Source: a virus (lineage: Duplodnaviria; Heunggongvirae; Uroviricota; Caudoviricetes). Taken from it: DNA of 14,754 nucleotides. The notes below the pieces were generated by a model. That model was not told the DNA's origin, did no database searches, and saw only the letters and a program-made list of their open reading frames with translations. Every line of letters starts with the position of its first letter. Positions within the stretch are counted from its first letter, which is position 1. Both the position numbers and the translations under genes were made by a program. The stretch lies in IMG/VR virus record IMGVR_UViG_2660238499_000008. The stretch is one strand, 5' to 3'. This document shows, in pieces, positions 4,177 to 14,754 of this stretch.

Positions 4177-4510
4177 AGGTGAGTTTCTGGAGTCCATAAA
4201 AAAGGGCTTGCCGACTATCGCCAACCCGGTTTATGGTTATAGCGCACCAGCAAAATCTGGTGTCGGGATTGGAACCCCGAACACACTAAGGGCGACACAG
4301 ACGCCGAAAGCGTCTTTTTTTGTGTCCATTCACTACGCACATCAAATCAGCGGACTTACCCGTACTGTATCAATGGTGGCGTTAGTGGGGCTACGTTCGC
4401 GTAGGCCGGTTTCCTTTGTGTCCGGTAGTTCCAACCCTGCTAACGTCACCGCCACTATTAAGATTGGAACCTTATGCGGTGACTCCTTAAACACAAAGGA
4501 GGCTGCCATA

Positions 4511-6077: not shown

Positions 6078-6419
6078 ATGATTACTAAAAATTTCCGACT
6101 GAATGCGCTGGCGAATAAGTATGCGTCGGCACTGTATAACCACATTACCTCCACCAGCGGCGGTGACTATTTCATGGTTGATGCGGACGGCCTCGCCGTC
6201 CGTGTGGAAATCGTCAATGGAGTAAAAGGCTTTCGCAGCCTGATCGATAGCTACACACTGGCAGCCATGAAAGTGTCCTACCCGCAGTGGGAAACCGTGG
6301 GGATCGCGCTTCTTGAGCGTTGCGTCACTAAGGACGGATTAACTGACGTCGGGCGCGAGATATGGCAAAGCATGGTTAAAGACATGGGCGCGACCGTGGC
6401 AGGGGGCAACCATGCGTAA
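6078..6419 (+). CDS. Hypothetical protein
   Basis: 113-aa ORF with strong RBS (gaggggg); its stop overlaps the primase start (ATGCGTAA). Confidence 0.6.
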   Translation: MITKNFRLNALANKYASALYNHITSTSGGDYFMVDADGLAVRVEIVNGVKGFRSLIDSYTLAAMKVSYPQWETVGIALLERCVTKDGLTDVGREIWQSMVKDMGATVAGGNHA

Positions 6420-9177
6420 TATCGATCTTATCCGCGAAGTGACCAGTGCCGCCGCCGGGCGCTGGCCTTATGTGCTGGCTGGATTGTCTATCGACGTGCC
6501 TGATTCATCGCGCCGCCATTCTCCATGCCCTGCATGTGGTGGAAAAGACCGTTTCAGATTCGACGACAACGGGCGCGGTAGCTTTATCTGCAATCAGTGT
6601 GGCGCTGGTGACGGTTTAGACCTGATTAAGAAGGTGAACAACTGCGACACTACGGAGGCGGCACAGCTTGCCGCTGATGTGCTGGGTATTGATTACCGGG
6701 CAGCGCAAACCGACCCGGTGGCAGCGAGCCATAGAAGAGAGCAACTGGAAGCTGACCGCCAGCAGCGTGAGCAGGAGCGCCAGAAACAGGCAGCAGAGGA
6801 TGCAGAGCAGCGAAGGGCTACGTTTGCCCGTCTGTATGCCGGAATGCGCCAGAGTGCCACACAGGGAGAATCTGATTACCTGCAATCAAAAGGGCTGACC
6901 GGGTTTAACTATCCGGTTATGCCGGATGGTTCGTTATTGCTGGAGCTGGTGGACGAATCCGGCGCAGTGGCAGCAGCGCAAACCATTACACCGCAGGGAG
7001 AGAAGCGACTCCTGACAGGTTCAGCAAAGCGCGGGGCATATCACGCCGTAAACGCACCAGAACAGCCGCAGAGCGTATTAATTGCCGAGGGGCTGGCGAC
7101 GGCCCTGTCCGTTCACCTGATGCGCCCGGACGCGCTTACAGTGGCGGCAATTGACGCCGGGAACCTGATCCACGTTGCCGGAGTAATGCGCCGGAAACAC
7201 CCGCAGTCGCAAATTATCATTGCCGCAGATAACGACCACCAGCAGGACGAACAGGCGAACACGGGCAAAGATGCCGCAGAGAAAGCCGCCTTATCCGTGG
7301 CTGGCTGGGTGGCGCTGCCGCCGACAGACTACAAAGCCGACTGGGACGACTACCGCCAGCAAAACGGGCTGGAAGTCGCTACGGCTGCGTTTAACGATTC
7401 GATGTACCAGATTCAGGGGGAAGCCGTGAAACCGCGATTGCAAGCCATTGAGGGCGGTAAAACTGACCATCCAGAGAAAGACCCACTAAAACCCCACATT
7501 GAGAGCCGAAAAGATGGCGTTTTCTGGGTAACGCCGAAGGTGGACAAGGAAAGCGGGGAGATCATCAACGCTGAAAGCTGGTTATGTTCACCGCTGGAGG
7601 TTATCGGCACGGGACGCGACGACAAAGATCAGTATCTTATTATCTCATGGCTGGCATTTGGTGCAGGCATACCGACAACAGCGGCTATCCCGCTGGCTGA
7701 TATTGGCGAGCGTGAAGGCTGGCGCACCCTGAAAGCTGGTGGCGTCAACGTCACAACGAAAAACAGCCTACGGGCGATTCTTGCCGACTGGTTACAGCGA
7801 AGCGGCTCGCGTGAATTGTGGCGCGTTGCTCATGCTACAGGCTGGCAGTGCGGGGCATACATCATGCCGGACGGGGAAATCATCGGCACACCTGAGCGGC
7901 CTGTTTTGTTCAGCGGGCGCAGTTCAGCCGCTGCCGGGTATACCGTAGCAGGAACGTCGGAAAGCTGGCGTAACAGTGTTGCGCGGCTGGCATACGGTAA
8001 TTACGCGATGATGACAGGCATCGCCGCAGCACTGGCAGCGCCATTAATCGGGGTGGCAGATCGTGACGGATTCGGGATTCATTTTTATGAGCAATCGAGC
8101 GCCGGGAAAACAACCACGCAGAACGTGGCGAGCAGTCTATACGGCAACCCTGATGCCTTGCGCCTGACGTGGTACGGGACGGCGCTGGGGCTGATAAACG
8201 AGGCCGCCGCCCACAATGACGGGCTGATGCCACTGGATGAAGTCGGACAGGGCGCTGACCCGATAAGCGTTTCTCAGTCTGCCTATGCCCTGTTTAACGG
8301 CGTGGGGAAATTGCAGGGAGCAAAGGAAGGAGGCAACCGGGATCTGAAACGCTGGCGCACCGTGGCAATCAGCACCGGGGAAGTGGACTTAGAAACCTTC
8401 ATCGCCACCGCCGGACGCAAGACCAAAGCCGGGCAACTGGTGCGCTTGCTGAATATCCCGTTAAGTAAGGCGGTGCGCTTTCATGAACACCAGACAGGGA
8501 AAGAACACGCCGACGCGCTGAAAGATGCTTATCAGCACCATCATGGCGCTGCCGGGAGGGAGTGGATCAGATGGCTTTCAGACCACCAGCAACAGGCGAT
8601 TGATGTCGTTCGTGAGTGTGAAGCCCGCTGGCGCAGTCTAATCCCTGCCGACTATGGGGAACAGGTTCACCGTGTAGGGGCAAGATTTGCCATTCTGGAG
8701 GCCGCTTTACTGATGGGTGGCGTGGTTACTGGCTGGGATGCTCAAACGTGCCGGGATGCGATACAGCACGCCTATAACGCATGGCTAAAAGAGTTCGGCA
8801 CGGGGAACAAAGAGCACCAGCAGATCATCGAGCAGGCGGAGGCATTTTTAAATGCCTATGGCCTGAGTCGATTCGCGCCGCTGCCTTACGACCCCGCCAG
8901 CCTGCCGATTCATAATCTGGCTGGATACAGGCAGCGCGGAAATCATGACGATTCACCGATAACGTTTTACACGTTCCCCGACACTTTCGATAAGGATATT
9001 GCTAAGGGGTTTAACAGGCAGCAGGTGGCCCGCGTCCTGAAAGAATCGGGGATGCTTACCCCTTCAGCAGACGGAAAAAAATTTCAGAGGAAAAGCCCGC
9101 GCATTCAGGGGAGGCAGATTAACGTTTACGTTTTGCAATTCCTGCCGGATGGGGAGGAAAGCCAGCCAGGGCAATAA
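6412..9177 (+). CDS. Replicative primase-helicase (P4 alpha-like): N-terminal zinc ribbon, TOPRIM domain, C-terminal Walker-A/B NTPase
   Basis: 921-aa ORF. Zinc-ribbon CPACGG...FICNQCG near the N-terminus. TOPRIM-like acidic motifs (IAEGLATA; IIAADNDHQQDE). Walker A-like SSAGKTT and Walker B-like LMPLDEV in the C-terminal half. Immediately followed by an iteron array. Confidence 0.9.
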   Translation: MRNIDLIREVTSAAAGRWPYVLAGLSIDVPDSSRRHSPCPACGGKDRFRFDDNGRGSFICNQCGAGDGLDLIKKVNNCDTTEAAQLAADVLGIDYRAAQTDPVAASHRREQLEADRQQREQERQKQAAEDAEQRRATFARLYAGMRQSATQGESDYLQSKGLTGFNYPVMPDGSLLLELVDESGAVAAAQTITPQGEKRLLTGSAKRGAYHAVNAPEQPQSVLIAEGLATALSVHLMRPDALTVAAIDAGNLIHVAGVMRRKHPQSQIIIAADNDHQQDEQANTGKDAAEKAALSVAGWVALPPTDYKADWDDYRQQNGLEVATAAFNDSMYQIQGEAVKPRLQAIEGGKTDHPEKDPLKPHIESRKDGVFWVTPKVDKESGEIINAESWLCSPLEVIGTGRDDKDQYLIISWLAFGAGIPTTAAIPLADIGEREGWRTLKAGGVNVTTKNSLRAILADWLQRSGSRELWRVAHATGWQCGAYIMPDGEIIGTPERPVLFSGRSSAAAGYTVAGTSESWRNSVARLAYGNYAMMTGIAAALAAPLIGVADRDGFGIHFYEQSSAGKTTTQNVASSLYGNPDALRLTWYGTALGLINEAAAHNDGLMPLDEVGQGADPISVSQSAYALFNGVGKLQGAKEGGNRDLKRWRTVAISTGEVDLETFIATAGRKTKAGQLVRLLNIPLSKAVRFHEHQTGKEHADALKDAYQHHHGAAGREWIRWLSDHQQQAIDVVRECEARWRSLIPADYGEQVHRVGARFAILEAALLMGGVVTGWDAQTCRDAIQHAYNAWLKEFGTGNKEHQQIIEQAEAFLNAYGLSRFAPLPYDPASLPIHNLAGYRQRGNHDDSPITFYTFPDTFDKDIAKGFNRQQVARVLKESGMLTPSADGKKFQRKSPRIQGRQINVYVLQFLPDGEESQPGQ

Positions 9178-9201
9178 TCTTTTTCACGTGCGAGGTTTTT
9201 T

Positions 9202-9462
9202 GTGGTGGTTCAGGTGGTTCAGGTGGTTCAGTAAGTAATTGTTATTGATTTATAATGTTTTTTTGTAAGAAATTGAACCACCACTGAACCACCAAACGGG
9301 TATTTTGAACCACCAGAGAGAAACGGATTATTTTCACTGGCTGGCAGTGAACCACCAAGAAGGGCGACTGAACCACCAGATAAATTTAAAAGGTGGTTCA
9401 GCAAAACCCAGAGTTGGCGCGGCCTAGAGGGGTACTGAACCACCTGAACCACCTGAACCACC
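9202..9462. repeat. Iteron-type origin of replication: 12 copies of the 8-bp core GGTGGTTC / GAACCACC
   Basis: Three tandem 9-bp units GTGGTTCAG at 9205-9231 (forward). AT-rich spacer at about 9232-9272. Six dispersed copies (9274-9282, 9284-9293, 9306-9314, 9347-9356, 9368-9377 reverse; 9392-9401 forward). Three tandem reverse units at 9436-9462, followed by a T-rich/AT tract. Position directly after the primase-helicase gene matches P4 ori/crr-type logic. Confidence 0.82.
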
Positions 9463-9566
9463 AACTTTTTTGTTTATATACCAATAAATCTGGCGAAGGT
9501 GTCCCACAATAAGACGGAGCCGGGTAATCTTCATTAGCAAAACTAATAATTCGAGGTATTCGCAAA

Positions 9567-10028
9567 ATGACAGCACAGATATCAGCCTACGGGCGTTTAG
9601 TCGCAGACCCCCAGACCCGCACCACAACGAACGGTGCAAGCATGGCAATGGGACGGTTAGCGGTGGCACTGCCCTGCCATGCAGCAGAGGGCGGAGAGGT
9701 TACTTTCTGGCTGGGCGTGGTGGCATTCGGCAAACAGGCCGACGCACTGGCAGGACACGTTAAAGGCGATTTAGTCAGTGTTGCCGGAGCGATGCAGATC
9801 AATCAGTGGACGGGCAAGGATGGCGGTACACAGCAAGGTTATCAGGTAGTGGCCGACAGCGTGATCAGCGCCAGAACGGTACGCCCCGGCGGGAAGCGGG
9901 CCGAATCAGTCAAAGCAAGCGGAGCCAGCAGGGGCCACACAACACAATCCGCGCCGGGATGGGAGTTATATAATACCCCTGATGATTTTGACCAACGCCC
10001 ACCATTCGACGATGAAACGCCATTCTGA
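9567..10028 (+). CDS. ssb: Single-stranded DNA-binding protein (SSB), OB-fold with acidic C-terminal tail
   Basis: 153-aa ORF. N-terminal half aligns by eye with bacterial SSB OB-fold (GRLVADPQTRTTTNG; WLGVVAFGKQADALAGHVKGDLVSVAGAMQINQWT). Gly/Ser-rich linker and C-terminal ...FDDETPF resembling the SSB D-D-D-I-P-F tail. Confidence 0.88.
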   Translation: MTAQISAYGRLVADPQTRTTTNGASMAMGRLAVALPCHAAEGGEVTFWLGVVAFGKQADALAGHVKGDLVSVAGAMQINQWTGKDGGTQQGYQVVADSVISARTVRPGGKRAESVKASGASRGHTTQSAPGWELYNTPDDFDQRPPFDDETPF

Positions 10029-10038
10029 GAGGGAAGAT

Positions 10039-10680
10039 ATGAGTACACAACCCACCATTATCGAGTTAGGCAGCTATCGCTGGCCCAGACATCTCGCAAT
10101 ACACGAAGCAGGTCATGCGATAGCCGCATGGTTTTTCGGCATACAGGAGGTAGAAATTGCGTTATCGGGTAATAACCGAGTGGCAAAAACCTACCTTAGC
10201 GGCGATGTTGATGAGTGTGGAGCCGTCGCGGTATGGCACGCCAACTATCCACGGAATGTGGCTGAGGTTAAGTCTTACACCCTCTCGAACGATGACGCCA
10301 GATTACGTCTGATAGACCAGGTATGCCGGGATATGGTTATCTCTCTGGCTGGTATCGTCGCGCAATCACGCTATACGGGGGATGATATTAACGCACTGAT
10401 GGAAACGTCCGGGAAAGCAGACATGAAAAATGTTCGTGATTTATCAGAGGTATACCGGGTGGCTGGTGGAGAGGATGCTGATATACAGAGAATATCACTT
10501 TCCCGTGCTGAGGCGCTGATTGCCCTGAAATGGTGGGATGTTATCGCGCTGGCGAAAATACTGGAGAACCGTAACCATATGCCTGCCAGAAACTTCCAGC
10601 GCATTATGGGTGATATTGACAAGCCTGTACCAAAGCCTATGACGCTGGCTGAACTGGATGAATTGGTGGGTGAAGAATGA
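10039..10680 (+). CDS. Putative zinc metallopeptidase (HExxH motif; ImmA/IrrE-like or FtsH-like HEAGH)
   Basis: 213-aa ORF from ATG at 10039 (RBS gagggaag). Motif LAIHEAGHAIAAW encoded at about 10093-10131 (HEAGH at 10102-10116). Family not resolved and third metal ligand not identified. Confidence 0.55.
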   Translation: MSTQPTIIELGSYRWPRHLAIHEAGHAIAAWFFGIQEVEIALSGNNRVAKTYLSGDVDECGAVAVWHANYPRNVAEVKSYTLSNDDARLRLIDQVCRDMVISLAGIVAQSRYTGDDINALMETSGKADMKNVRDLSEVYRVAGGEDADIQRISLSRAEALIALKWWDVIALAKILENRNHMPARNFQRIMGDIDKPVPKPMTLAELDELVGEE

Positions 10681-11027
10681 AGCCATACATTCTGGCAGCC
10701 GTCCTGATCTCATCGGCACCGGCACTATCTGCTATCCATTGTGGGGGCTTTACTATACAGCCAGACCGTTATCGGACAACGATTAACGGCGATGTGGTTC
10801 ATATTGTTGATGCGCAATTTTACGGCGCACCGCGAGACTTTAGCCAGGCCGCCATAAAGTTATTGCCGGATGCCATTACCACTACCGACAGGCAATACCG
10901 ACTGGAGACGCAGGGAAGCAATGCCTTGCTTGAGTTGATGACCAGAGAAAACCCGCCACGTGTGCTTAATCGTGAGCGCTGCGATGCCGGGCTAACAGGC
11001 TTTTACTGGTACTCGTCTGTGCCGTGA
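10677..11027 (+). CDS. Small exported protein with N-terminal signal peptide
   Basis: 116-aa ORF; start overlaps the stop of the HExxH gene (ATGA). N-terminus MKPYILAAVLISSAPALSA has a positive n-region, hydrophobic core and AxA-like cleavage site. Confidence 0.6.
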   Translation: MKPYILAAVLISSAPALSAIHCGGFTIQPDRYRTTINGDVVHIVDAQFYGAPRDFSQAAIKLLPDAITTTDRQYRLETQGSNALLELMTRENPPRVLNRERCDAGLTGFYWYSSVP

Positions 11028-11241: not shown

Positions 11242-11619
11242 ATGAAAAAAAATAGCCAACAATCAAGATCCGGATGGGGTGGCAAGCGGAAAGGCGCAGG
11301 CGCACCGTTGGGCAATACTAATGCCGTCAAACATGGCGAACGCAGTAGGCGGGCATTCTTCCCGTTTGAGGGAGAAGATGCGCTTTCTCCGCTGGTGCGA
11401 AATCGTGCAAGAAACCTCATGATGGCTGAGAGATACGGGCTATTACTGGCGACTAATCCGACGCCGGGAACAGAAGAATGGCGCGAGATGACATTGATTA
11501 ACGGACTCATGGGGCTACATGCCGACAGAATCGCACGGCTTGAGCTGAGTTTAGCGAGATCCGTTTCAATGCAAGCAAGGCGGGATCTGCGAAGGGTTAA
11601 AAAAAACGGCGCATGTTAG
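11242..11619 (+). CDS. Small basic protein with GxPxGNxNAxKHG motif; possible terminase small-subunit-like / packaging-redirecting protein
   Basis: 125-aa ORF. N-terminus GGKRKGAGAPLGNTNAVKHGERS resembles a motif I associate with phage small-terminase-family proteins (recalled, not verified). No large terminase or capsid genes in the element. Confidence 0.5.
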   Translation: MKKNSQQSRSGWGGKRKGAGAPLGNTNAVKHGERSRRAFFPFEGEDALSPLVRNRARNLMMAERYGLLLATNPTPGTEEWREMTLINGLMGLHADRIARLELSLARSVSMQARRDLRRVKKNGAC

Positions 11620-11873: not shown

Positions 11874-12485
11874 GTGAGAGACAGAACGCGCAGCTATATC
11901 ACCGACCTGCCCCGTATAGGGTTGCCATTCCTTGCGAACATGCGTAGCAGGCTGGCGGACGCCGAACCGGGGACGCAGCTTTATACCCAGACCGAAAGCG
12001 GAACGTTGTATACCTTCCGGCAAGCCGACAGCTACGCCATGACAATCAACGGCGTTACACGGGCAATCAGAACCACGACCACACAAGCCGGGTATGGTGT
12101 GCGGGAATGGTACGTCTGTCCCCACTGCATAAAGCGGGTAGCGAAGCTGTATATCGGCAAAAAAGATATTGGCTGCCGGGGATGCTGGAAACTCCACTAT
12201 AAAAGCCAGAGCGCCGACAGACTGGACAGGATGCGAATGAAGATACGCCAGCAGCGATGCGCGATATGGGGAAGCAATGACCTTGCCAATAATCTGTTTA
12301 ATGACATTCGCATGTTCCCAAAACCAAAGGGGATGCGCTGGGCTACGTTTGACAGGAAGCGGGCAGAGTTATCAGTTATGGAGATGGCTTACTGGCAGGC
12401 ATTCAGTCCGGTAGTAGATAGAATCAGGGGCATGGTTGAGCGTAAGACGGGGAAAGCAGCCAGAGGCATTGGCCTGACTTTGTAA
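11874..12485 (+). CDS. Hypothetical protein with C4 zinc-ribbon (CPHC...CRGC)
   Basis: 203-aa ORF starting at GTG 11874, 7 nt after a perfect AGGAGG (alternative ATG at 11939). CxxC pairs CPHC and CRGC separated by 16 residues. Preceded by regulatory module B. A 6-bp stem hairpin follows the stop (about 12489-12505) but has no U-tract. Confidence 0.65.
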   Translation: MRDRTRSYITDLPRIGLPFLANMRSRLADAEPGTQLYTQTESGTLYTFRQADSYAMTINGVTRAIRTTTTQAGYGVREWYVCPHCIKRVAKLYIGKKDIGCRGCWKLHYKSQSADRLDRMRMKIRQQRCAIWGSNDLANNLFNDIRMFPKPKGMRWATFDRKRAELSVMEMAYWQAFSPVVDRIRGMVERKTGKAARGIGLTL

Positions 12486-12716
12486 AAGCAAAACGCCCGC
12501 ACGGGGCGTCAAGGAACGGGATAGACTTCTGCGACAATTTGCATTCGCCGCCAATATAGCAAGCCGTCCACATCAAGCAATAAACTATCACCGGGAGGGG
12601 GAGGCCAAATCTCTGCAACCCTGAGCCTTAAGGACTGCCCGCCCCATCGTTTTTTTATACCCGCGAAAAATGAAATTTAATCCGGGCGTGTTTCATCCTT
12701 CCAGAGGGTATGACGT

Positions 12717-12902
12717 ATGACACCACGCGAAATAGCCTTATTGACCATCGCCAAACTTGAGCACGGAGGCCACCAGCTTACACTGGCAGATCAACGGGAG
12801 ATAGAACGCTCAGTTAATGCCGATATAGCCCGGCGCGACAGGTTCCGCGAAATGATGCGAGCACCTGCCTACCAGTGGAAGAAGCCAGCGCCGCGCAGGT
12901 AG
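12717..12902 (+). CDS. Hypothetical small basic protein
   Basis: 61-aa ORF (MTPREIALLTIAKLEHGG...); weak RBS; preceded by a T7 run at about 12646-12652. No family recognised. Confidence 0.45.
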   Translation: MTPREIALLTIAKLEHGGHQLTLADQREIERSVNADIARRDRFREMMRAPAYQWKKPAPRR

Positions 12903-13134
12903 ATATGGGATTATTCCACATGTAACTATACGAGCAATCAGCCCATTAGCTGCCTGCGTGGGAAAGGCACCACCCCGGCGGAAAACTCAGGCGGCTTGCA
13001 TGGTTACAATGAATTGCTATTACAGGCCAGAGAGTCTGATAATCCTGAGCAGGCCGAGATCCACAATTTCCTGATGCTGGATATTGAACGCCGGGTTTAC
13101 GACCTGAGCCGCATCAACGGCAGATTGCAGGCTA

Positions 13135-13494
13135 TTAACTGACCCGCATGTATTCACCTGATATTGCGTTATCAGCGCCGCCATTATCGCGCACAACGGC
13201 ACATTGACCGGGTAAACCGTAGCGAACGACCGTTGCGTTAGTTTTACCGCCACGCTTTACCTGACGAGATTCATACACTGTCACACGTTCCAGCAGCCCC
13301 CCGGCAACCATGCTTTCAAGAGTTCGCCGGGTGGATTCGAGCGGGTGGCGCTTATCGAACGACACCATGCCATGAAGAAGGTAGGCCACGCCCGACACAT
13401 CGAACGGCGGCGCACCAATCTCACCTGTCACCCATTCGAGGTTATCCGGCTCAAAGTAGCTGAGTATCTCTTTTTTGCGGCTGGTCATTCTCAT
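13135..13494 (-). CDS. Hypothetical protein, convergent to the rest of the element; possible winged-helix-like segment
   Basis: 119-aa ORF, the only convincing minus-strand gene. RBS aaggaa upstream of the ATG. Segment HPLESTRRTLESMVAGGLLERV is reminiscent of a recognition helix/wing, which is speculative. Confidence 0.5.
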   Translation of the reverse strand: MRMTSRKKEILSYFEPDNLEWVTGEIGAPPFDVSGVAYLLHGMVSFDKRHPLESTRRTLESMVAGGLLERVTVYESRQVKRGGKTNATVVRYGLPGQCAVVRDNGGADNAISGEYMRVS

Positions 13495-13742
13495 GGCTGG
13501 CTGATTCCTTATTGTGGGATAGCGGTATCATACAATAAGGCGCAAAAGATAAGAGGCCAGAACAGCAAGCATGAGAGCATAAAATGAGCAGCCAAAGACA
13601 GCACCTCAAAATACCGTGTACACAAGGGTGTACCTACTTAGAAAACGCATTACAAGGAATCCAGTAACCACGCGGCCTAGAGACTCCTACTCAATAAACA
13701 GATTCAGACTCGTAACGCCAATTCTTACTTTTCAGCCTTCAC

Positions 13743-13778
13743 AAATGCCGCCCACTCAAACAGAGCGGCATTTTTCTT
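13743..13778 (+). terminator. Putative intrinsic terminator (8-bp stem AATGCCGC/GCGGCATT, about 13-nt loop, then TTTTTCTT)
   Basis: Inverted repeat 13744-13751 / 13765-13772 followed directly by a T-run. Lies about 150 bp upstream of dinD; the loop is larger than typical, so confidence is moderate. Confidence 0.45.
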
Positions 13779-13868
13779 CCCCGCAACTTTCAATTCTGTT
13801 TTGCGTGCCTGCTCCAGATTTTGCGATGTCTTTTTGCCCAGCACACTGAGAACGTGAGACACTCACAA

Positions 13869-13884
13869 CTGTATATAAATACAG
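13869..13884 (+). promoter_or_regulatory. LexA operator (SOS box) CTGTATATAAATACAG of dinD
   Basis: Perfect CTGT-N8-ACAG match to the LexA consensus with an AT-rich centre, 46 bp upstream of the dinD start codon. Confidence 0.88.
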
Positions 13885-13929
13885 TTACAGATTTACTTTC
13901 TTTGCAATCGATATCACATGGAGTGGGCA

Positions 13930-14754
13930 ATGAACGAACATCATCAACCTTTTGAAGAAATACGGCATTATGGCACTGAAGGGCAAGAATTTTGGTCAGC
14001 GAGAGAATTGGCACCGTTACTGGATTATCGGGACTGGCGCAATTTTCAAAAGGTACTTGCCCGCGCGACTCAAGCGTGCGAAGCCAGCAATCAAGCTGCA
14101 TCTGACCATTTCGTTGAAACCACCAAAATGGTTGTATTAGGTTCAGGGGCTCAACGAGAACTTGAAGATGTTCATCTCTCCCGCTATGCCTGTTACCTGG
14201 TAGTACAAAACGGCGACCCTGCGAAACCGGTTATTGCGGCAGGACAAACTTATTTTGCTATCCAGACCCGACGGCAGGAGCTGGCTGACGATGAAGCTTT
14301 CAGGCAACTTCGTGAAGACGAAAAGCGTCTTTTTCTGAGAAATGAATTGAAAGAACATAACAAACAATTAGTTGAGGCAGCGCAGCAAGCTGGGGTAGCG
14401 ACAGCTATCGATTTCGCCATATTTCAGAATCATGGTTACCGGGGGCTGTATGGTGGATTAGATCAGAAAGCCATCCATCAGCGGAAGGGGCTGAAAAAGA
14501 GTCAGAAGATCCTGGATCATATGGGTTCAACAGAACTGGCGGCTAATCTCTTTCGAGCTACCCAAACAGAAGAAAAACTTAAGCGGGATGGCGTGAATTC
14601 AAAACAGCAAGCTAACACCACACACTTTGACGTAGGTCGCAAGGTGAGGCAAACCATTCAGGAACTTGGCGGAACCATGCCTGAGGAGTTGCCGACCCCG
14701 CAGGTCAGCATTAAGCAGTTGGAAAACAGTGTAAAAATTACAGAGAAAAAATAG
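13930..14754 (+). CDS. dinD: DNA-damage-inducible protein D (DinD), core chromosomal SOS gene
   Basis: 274-aa ORF from ATG 13930 (RBS ggag 6 nt upstream; the track ORF starts 4 codons earlier at 13918). N-terminus MNEHHQPFEEIRHYGTEGQEFWSARELAPLLDYRDWRNF matches my recollection of Escherichia coli DinD. Preceded by a consensus LexA box. Stop codon is the last 3 nt of the window. Confidence 0.88.
   Translation: MNEHHQPFEEIRHYGTEGQEFWSARELAPLLDYRDWRNFQKVLARATQACEASNQAASDHFVETTKMVVLGSGAQRELEDVHLSRYACYLVVQNGDPAKPVIAAGQTYFAIQTRRQELADDEAFRQLREDEKRLFLRNELKEHNKQLVEAAQQAGVATAIDFAIFQNHGYRGLYGGLDQKAIHQRKGLKKSQKILDHMGSTELAANLFRATQTEEKLKRDGVNSKQQANTTHFDVGRKVRQTIQELGGTMPEELPTPQVSIKQLENSVKITEKK

Follow-up and report, generated by a model that had tools for sequence, protein, structure and literature searches.

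[quoted passage not shown] At the left end, a tyrosine integrase (1-1260, + strand) with Arm-DNA-bind_3, Phage_int_M and Phage_integrase matches, which adjoins yicC in E. coli S43, is followed by an int-alpA RNA (1269-1334, +; Rfam gathering-level match) and by an AlpA-family regulator or excisionase (2288-2491, +; PF05930 Phage_AlpA at 26.7 bits against a cutoff of 21, with HTH_17). The island also encodes an AntA protein, and its Ash/Icd zone contains an isrK RNA (4244-4320, +; Rfam, 76 bits) and a C4 antisense RNA (4369-4456, +; Rfam, 81.3 bits). Nearly the same island is found between yicC and dinD in E. coli S43 (96% identity, 74% of the window). Genomes lacking the island, K-12 among them, match the window only from 13708 on, and this match runs into the 3' end of yicC. 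The island thus extends from the 3' end of yicC to position 13707 or so, a length of about 13.9 kb. A perfect LexA box, CTGTATATAAATACAG (13869-13884, +), lies upstream of the host dinD gene, just beyond the right end of the island, and the island is therefore inserted directly upstream of an SOS promoter.

The label of satellite given to this DNA in the first-pass annotation is borne out by the combination of integrase, AlpA, primase-helicase and iteron origin, and searches of Pfam, PHROGs and NCBIfam with the island proteins revealed no structural genes. More specifically, the window is a Gram-negative PICI-type satellite at the 3' end of yicC. The sequence features by which Fillol-Salom et al. 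2018 (PMC6092414) define such islands are present, i.e., an integrase and AlpA at the left end with core genes running rightward (in the S43 island, the annotated core genes share a strand, the only exception being a gene at the right end), a pri-rep gene followed by two iteron sets around an AT-rich region, a specific attachment site, a small size (about 10-15 kb in that definition) and a lack of structural and lysis genes. The CI/C4 immunity RNA of P4-like elements is also present, yet sid, psu and delta families are absent among the island proteins (Pfam, PHROGs, NCBIfam), and the island is for that reason not classified as P4-like. The int-alpA, isrK and C4 RNAs, all Rfam gathering-level matches, make up a P4-type RNA immunity set (CI/seqA-like) carried on a PICI-type island without sid, psu or delta.

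The replication region and its downstream neighbours

The primase-helicase, the replication initiator of the island, is a protein of 921 aa (6412-9177, +) with Zn_Ribbon_Prim, Toprim_3 and DUF927 matches, and it is matched by the DNA primase family PHROG 1139 at 3.4e-176. The replication origin (9204-9464) follows and consists of 12 GAACCACC iterons, as determined by repeat search and TRF and by an 8-mer count of 12. Three tandem copies form the left set (9204-9231), an AT-rich core occupies 9232-9272, and eight copies in the opposite orientation are found within 9273-9464, together with one copy in the first orientation (9392-9401). An AT-rich stretch between two sets of iterons is the origin layout described for Gram-negative PICIs (PMC6092414). 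The ssb gene starts 102 bp past the last iteron and is preceded by a conserved leader of 79 nt (9488-9566, +) comprising the palindrome ATTAGCAAAACTAAT and a GAGG ribosome-binding site. This leader is nearly identical in two further islands with different iterons (L002 and L004) and is partly conserved in two others (L008 and L022). The palindrome is perfect and located about 25 nt 5' of the start codon, and the leader that bears it may be a protein-binding site. Folding of the leader RNA was no better than that of shuffled sequences (z=-0.72), and no sigma-70 consensus promoter or terminator rose above background between the origin and ssb. Likewise, no LexA box was found near ssb, the dinD box described above being the sole perfect match in the window. 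As neither a promoter nor a LexA box was found upstream, the timing of ssb expression can only be inferred.

Comparing the window with the S43 island reveals how the parts of this region have moved relative to each other. The N-terminal part of the primase (residues 1-351) is 99% identical and the SSB 98% identical between the two, while the helicase half is of the DUF927 type in the window versus the P4 family in S43, and the iterons are GAACCACC versus ATCCCTAC. The helicase half and the entire iteron origin have been exchanged as one block, corresponding to 7465-9566 in the window and 11995-14000 in island L001. Since helicase and origin were swapped with the SSB unchanged, the SSB is not tied to one helicase, and any partner bound by its C-terminal tip is thus more likely to be found among host proteins or in the N-terminal primase part common to both islands.

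Directly after ssb, the window encodes a 213-aa protein (10039-10680, +) with an invariant HEAGH zinc-protease motif at residues 22-26. No Pfam, NCBIfam, PHROG or PADLOC match was obtained for this protein, and its AlphaFold2 model (pLDDT 77.5) bears a weak resemblance to the FtsH/AFG3L2 protease domain, the AAA+ part being absent (Foldseek E about 1e-3, TMq about 0.5). Overlapping its reading frame by 4 bp is that of a 116-aa protein (10677-11027, +) with a hydrophobic N-terminus that by eye resembles a signal peptide. The pair co-occurs in L001, L020 and L022, where it fills the slot taken by PerC in other PICIs. Only 23 protein clusters are known, and the pair may represent accessory or interference cargo. 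A functional pairing of the SSB with this HEAGHA metalloprotease was considered and rejected, as the two are adjacent only in the window and in those same three islands, with PerC or other proteins occupying the position elsewhere. Further downstream, the N-terminus of a 125-aa protein (11242-11619, +), conserved in L001-L003, L005 and L007, weakly matches the small-terminase motif NF040601 (E=6.6e-4, residues 9-33). It may be an Rpp-like protein, as known from EcCICFT073, that redirects helper packaging.

The SSB, its fold and its C-terminal tip

The ssb gene (9567-10028, +) encodes 153 aa followed by a stop codon, begins with ATG and is intact, with the coordinates of the first-pass annotation confirmed. 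Its start codon is supported by a methionine that is invariant among homologues and by the GAGG Shine-Dalgarno sequence 10 nt upstream. The protein belongs to the SSB family, as PF00436 matches residues 4-99 at 54.2 bits (cutoff 26 bits, E=1.7e-14), the 'single strand DNA binding protein' family PHROG 44 matches at 3e-29, solved SSBs are found by sequence search at about 1e-10, and the RefSeq-annotated SSB WP_073528242.1 of E. coli S43 is the 98% identical homologue mentioned above. The score of 50.7 bits against the NCBIfam 'ssb' model TIGR00621 falls just under its cutoff of 53.95 bits, a marginal miss consistent with a divergent clade of mobile elements, and PRK13732 (NCBIfam) reaches 20.6 bits against a cutoff of 265 bits.

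The AlphaFold model, built from an input alignment of 32 homologues, displays a confident OB fold of five strands and one helix over residues 1-103 (block pLDDT 77-93), while residues 104-153 are disordered (pLDDT below 50). The best Foldseek matches to this model are S. aureus SsbA and SsbB, B. subtilis SsbA, mycobacterial SSBs and E. coli SSB (1eqq), with TMt values of 0.65-0.8 to SsbA, SsbB and the E. coli protein. Together with the selection pattern and the alignment of aromatic residues described below, these data delimit an OB-fold ssDNA-binding domain (aa 1-105; 9567-9881, +), a disordered and fast-evolving linker (aa 106-137; 9882-9977, +) and a conserved acidic tip, PDDFDQRPPFDDETPF (aa 138-153; 9978-10025, +), the predicted C-terminus reading ...DQRPPFDDETPF in the translated frame.

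In total, 746 SSB homologues were found at E<=1e-5, and among the best 120 of these, all entries with a named source are from Enterobacterales. In an alignment of these 120 homologues, the columns of the OB core are about 90-100% conserved, while positions 111-137 are about 40-70% conserved and contain indels. Conservation then rises again in the tip, where D142, Q143, P146, F147, D148 and D149 are conserved in 78-97% of sequences, forming the pattern D142-Q143-x-P-P-F-D-D. The last residues vary among homologues (ETPF, EDPF, EAPF, EAQF, SIPL, DDF, EDDF and others), with TP, DP, AP, AQ, IP or nothing at positions -2/-3, while the acidic run is kept, as is a C-terminal F, replaced in rare cases by L or Y. 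Pairwise Nei-Gojobori dN/dS was calculated for 35 genes, and its median is lowest in the OB fold (0.16), intermediate in the tip (0.24) and highest in the linker (0.52), indicating purifying selection on OB fold and tip and relaxation of the linker.

The E. coli SSB used as the host reference (sequence identical to PDB 1eqq_A) shares only 25% identity with the satellite protein, but the two have in common an OB fold, a disordered linker and an acidic tip with terminal Pro-Phe. W48, F54 and W81 of the satellite SSB align with the E. coli stacking residues W54, F60 and W88, and within the family each of the three has a conservation of at least 98%, whereas an equivalent of E. coli W40 is absent, as the satellite protein has a short L23 loop without an aromatic residue at that place. 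The satellite linker is about 32 aa long and lacks the Gly/Gln-rich repeats of the host protein. In addition, the tetramer-interface residue H55 of E. coli SSB is replaced by L49. This replacement bears on the idea that the satellite SSB poisons replication of the helper phage, either through mixed tetramers with host SSB or through titration of host replisome contacts. The idea could draw on the common interference of satellites with their helpers and on the host-like tip, but L49 and the low identity to host SSB make mixed tetramers unlikely. Moreover, a related SSB is carried by capsid-forming EcCIEDL933-type PICIs, and EcCIEDL933 has been reported not to block helpers (bioRxiv 10.1101/2022.09.08.507074), leaving interference with the helper a very unlikely role.

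At the tip, PPFDDETPF in the satellite protein corresponds to PPMDFDDDIPF in the host (host tip DFDDDIPF). The first-pass annotation had described the terminal DDETPF as a variant tail and proposed comparing it with that of the host SSB. This comparison confirms that it differs from the host DDDIPF, yet the variation is mild, as four of the six positions (D, D, P and F) are identical, the exchange of D for E is conservative, and the exchange of I for T is the sole real change. Unlike E. coli SSB, however, the satellite protein has a second DDF motif ahead of DDETPF.

Distribution and integrity of the gene among PICIs

While an SSB had been regarded as unusual cargo for a small satellite, the distribution of the gene speaks against this view, as the SSB clade recurs in the replication zones of Gram-negative PICIs. 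Mageeney et al. 2023 (PMC10111431) assign 'Primase, SSB and DUF5906' to the PICI Replication category and give example gene profiles reading '...DUF4222,Primase,SSB,...'. Using sensitive blastn, DNA relatives of ssb were found in 1465 of 5426 complete E. coli genomes, with as many as six in a single genome and nearly all of them on the chromosome, and 39 of 40 sampled matches lie under the annotation 'single-stranded DNA-binding protein'. All contexts inspected were PICIs, and within these the lineage was seen only in replication zones. For example, the island at roxA-phoQ of O157:H7 encodes a RepA-family helicase, a small ORF, the SSB, PerC, capsid genes and TerS; the one at cspD-clpS encodes a DNA primase, a small ORF, the SSB, capsid/protease and TerS; and the one at pntB-mdtJ encodes DUF5906, a small ORF, the SSB, PerC and a capsid module. 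Further contexts were a circular Klebsiella PICI assembly and two more yicC-dinD islands.

The gene itself is thus already known, being annotated in RefSeq at 97-98% identity and published as present in PICIs. The published Gram-negative PICI SSBs (PMC10111431), including those of the EcCIEDL933 type at roxA-phoQ, belong to the same clade by DNA and protein similarity, and their islands display the same order of initiator, iteron origin and ssb within the same architecture of int, alpA, Bro/Icd zone, replication zone and variable right end. The window differs from these islands in its DUF927-type initiator, its GAACCACC iterons, the lack of a small ORF between origin and ssb, and the M41-like metalloprotease after ssb instead of PerC.

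The position of ssb was further analysed in two sets of loci. The first was assembled by finding the SSB and comprises 41 loci from a scan of one genome per species in Enterobacterales, together with the E. coli islands L001-L003, 44 in all. In 37 of these 44 loci, ssb is preceded by a primase-helicase gene of the same strand, whose end lies less than 1.5 kb away, usually at a distance of 160-760 bp. The iterons in the spacers between primase and ssb fall into at least seven sequence classes, and the arrangement of initiator, origin and ssb is found with four initiator types, i.e., DUF927, P4-family primase, RepA-family helicase and the DUF5906/DNA-primase family. The second set of 80 IMG/VR loci was chosen only by similarity of the primase, and here a satellite-type SSB lies at most 3.5 kb downstream of the primase in 48 loci, while the remaining 32 contain no SSB-like ORF anywhere. 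Some of these 32 evidently belong to other element types, since phage tail- or capsid-like ORFs, as read from N-terminal sequences only, follow the primase. Because 32 of 80 primase-related loci are without an SSB, the gene is dispensable, an optional rather than an essential component of such elements.

Broken copies and SSB-less loci also indicate that ssb is gained and lost often among PICIs. A noticeable fraction of copies is truncated or frameshifted (L031, L040, L043, L062, L071, L114, L116, L120 and L123); among the 48 primase-found copies, about 7 are truncated. Homologues such as those of L031, L040 and L043 and the truncated primase-found copies could be taken to suggest that the gene of the window is likewise a decaying, non-functional remnant, a case also raised in the first-pass annotation. 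This is contradicted by the copy itself, which is full length with every conserved position present, and by the family, whose 746 homologues and low dN/dS in OB fold and tip, together with the alternation of conserved and variable regions, form the classical pattern of a working SSB. A remnant is therefore ruled out for practical purposes and is retained only as an extremely improbable reading.

Two other origins of the gene were examined and rejected. A plasmid origin was suggested by matches in a plasmid database, yet the two best contexts proved to be PICIs: NZ_CP033626.1, deposited as a plasmid, is a circular Klebsiella record of 22.9 kb that consists of a PICI, part of which was apparently duplicated during assembly, and CP088587.1, likewise deposited as a plasmid, is a 32.6-kb E. 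coli sequence with the chromosomal genes pntB and mdtJI around a capsid-forming PICI. A phage origin is not supported either, as no record of the phage collection reaches 60% identity and the matches listed are at most 37% identical.

Candidate roles of the satellite SSB

Taken together, the satellite protein is probably a functional bacterial-type SSB serving as an accessory part of the satellite replication module. That a private SSB supports the satellite's own replication was proposed in the first-pass annotation alongside the premise of unusual cargo, and while this premise was wrong, the proposal itself is plausible and fits the position of the gene next to the origin and the primase. 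In agreement with a replication role, three of the four E. coli stacking aromatics are kept. According to this model, a helper phage would induce the island, leading to AlpA-dependent rightward transcription, after which the primase-helicase would bind the GAACCACC iterons, open the AT-rich core and unwind the DNA. The SSB, whose gene directly follows the origin, would then coat the exposed single strands via its OB fold, presumably as a tetramer, while the PPFDDETPF tip may engage host SSB-tip partners (e.g., Pol III chi, PriA and DnaG) and/or the island primase. Being host-like, the tip could recruit host replisome or restart factors. The satellite would thereby gain its own supply of SSB when replication of phage and satellite makes ssDNA abundant. 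Any such benefit would be accessory, as the pri-ori segment of EcCICFT073 alone replicates a plasmid in DH5alpha (PMC6092414), showing that the SSB is not essential. In the literature searched, PICI SSBs are mentioned at annotation level only, and no experiment on any of them was found.

A second SSB on a mobile element has a parallel in the leading regions of conjugative plasmids (PRK13732 type). Plasmid-encoded SSBs complement host ssb mutants. The plasmid proteins, however, form a different clade, and the satellite gene is located beside a replication origin and not in a transfer leading region. The SSBs of PHROG 44, for example those of staphylococcal and streptococcal temperate phages, are the best profile match, and Firmicutes-type SsbA and SsbB are the best structural and sequence matches. 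In these phages the partner of the SSB is often an Erf-type recombinase rather than a primase-helicase with an origin. As the closest SSB relatives in Gram-positive phages adjoin Erf-type annealing proteins according to annotation, it could be speculated that the satellite SSB protects or processes ssDNA outside replication initiation, for example in recombination-dependent concatemers, in packaging intermediates or during establishment after transduction. Yet, no recombinase or annealing protein was found among the scanned island proteins, several of which match no family, and ssb is tied to the origin and initiator and not to packaging genes, which makes this role quite unlikely.

The host-like tip raises a further option, also put forward in the first-pass annotation, namely that the protein acts as a competitor or decoy. 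It would then occupy host SSB-interacting proteins, mask ssDNA from nucleases or defence systems, or divert defences that sense SSBs. Conservation of the tip under purifying selection would suit such a function, as would the divergence of the clade, at 25% identity to host SSB and at most about 37% to the phage SSB matches listed. Moreover, phage SSBs are reported to trigger the Retron-Eco8 and DARNA defence systems. However, constraint on the protein is strongest in the OB fold, which retains three of the four stacking aromatics, and a pure tip decoy would need neither, and ssb occupies a fixed site beside the origin and not a variable accessory slot. In addition, no consistent link to defence or anti-defence genes was observed, and PADLOC returned no match for the SSB or its downstream neighbours to 13491, with only weak DRT-type matches for the primase; membership of ssb in a defence system was rejected on this result. 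A decoy or competitor is therefore unlikely, and a supporting role in satellite replication is preferred.

What the analysis adds concerns less the gene than its setting, since published work had already counted SSB among the replication-zone families of Gram-negative PICIs. An SSB from this clade, borne by a satellite and lying beside origins of many specificities, is present in roughly one in four complete E. coli genomes. As phage SSBs can trigger defences, such a widespread resident SSB of non-host type is a reasonable and cheap experimental target. It is conceivable, though we consider the chance small, that this possibly satellite-specific lineage uses its tip to compete for host SSB-interacting proteins or modulates SSB-sensing defences during helper infection. 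If so, roughly one in four E. coli genomes would carry a gene that shapes the outcomes of phage defence.
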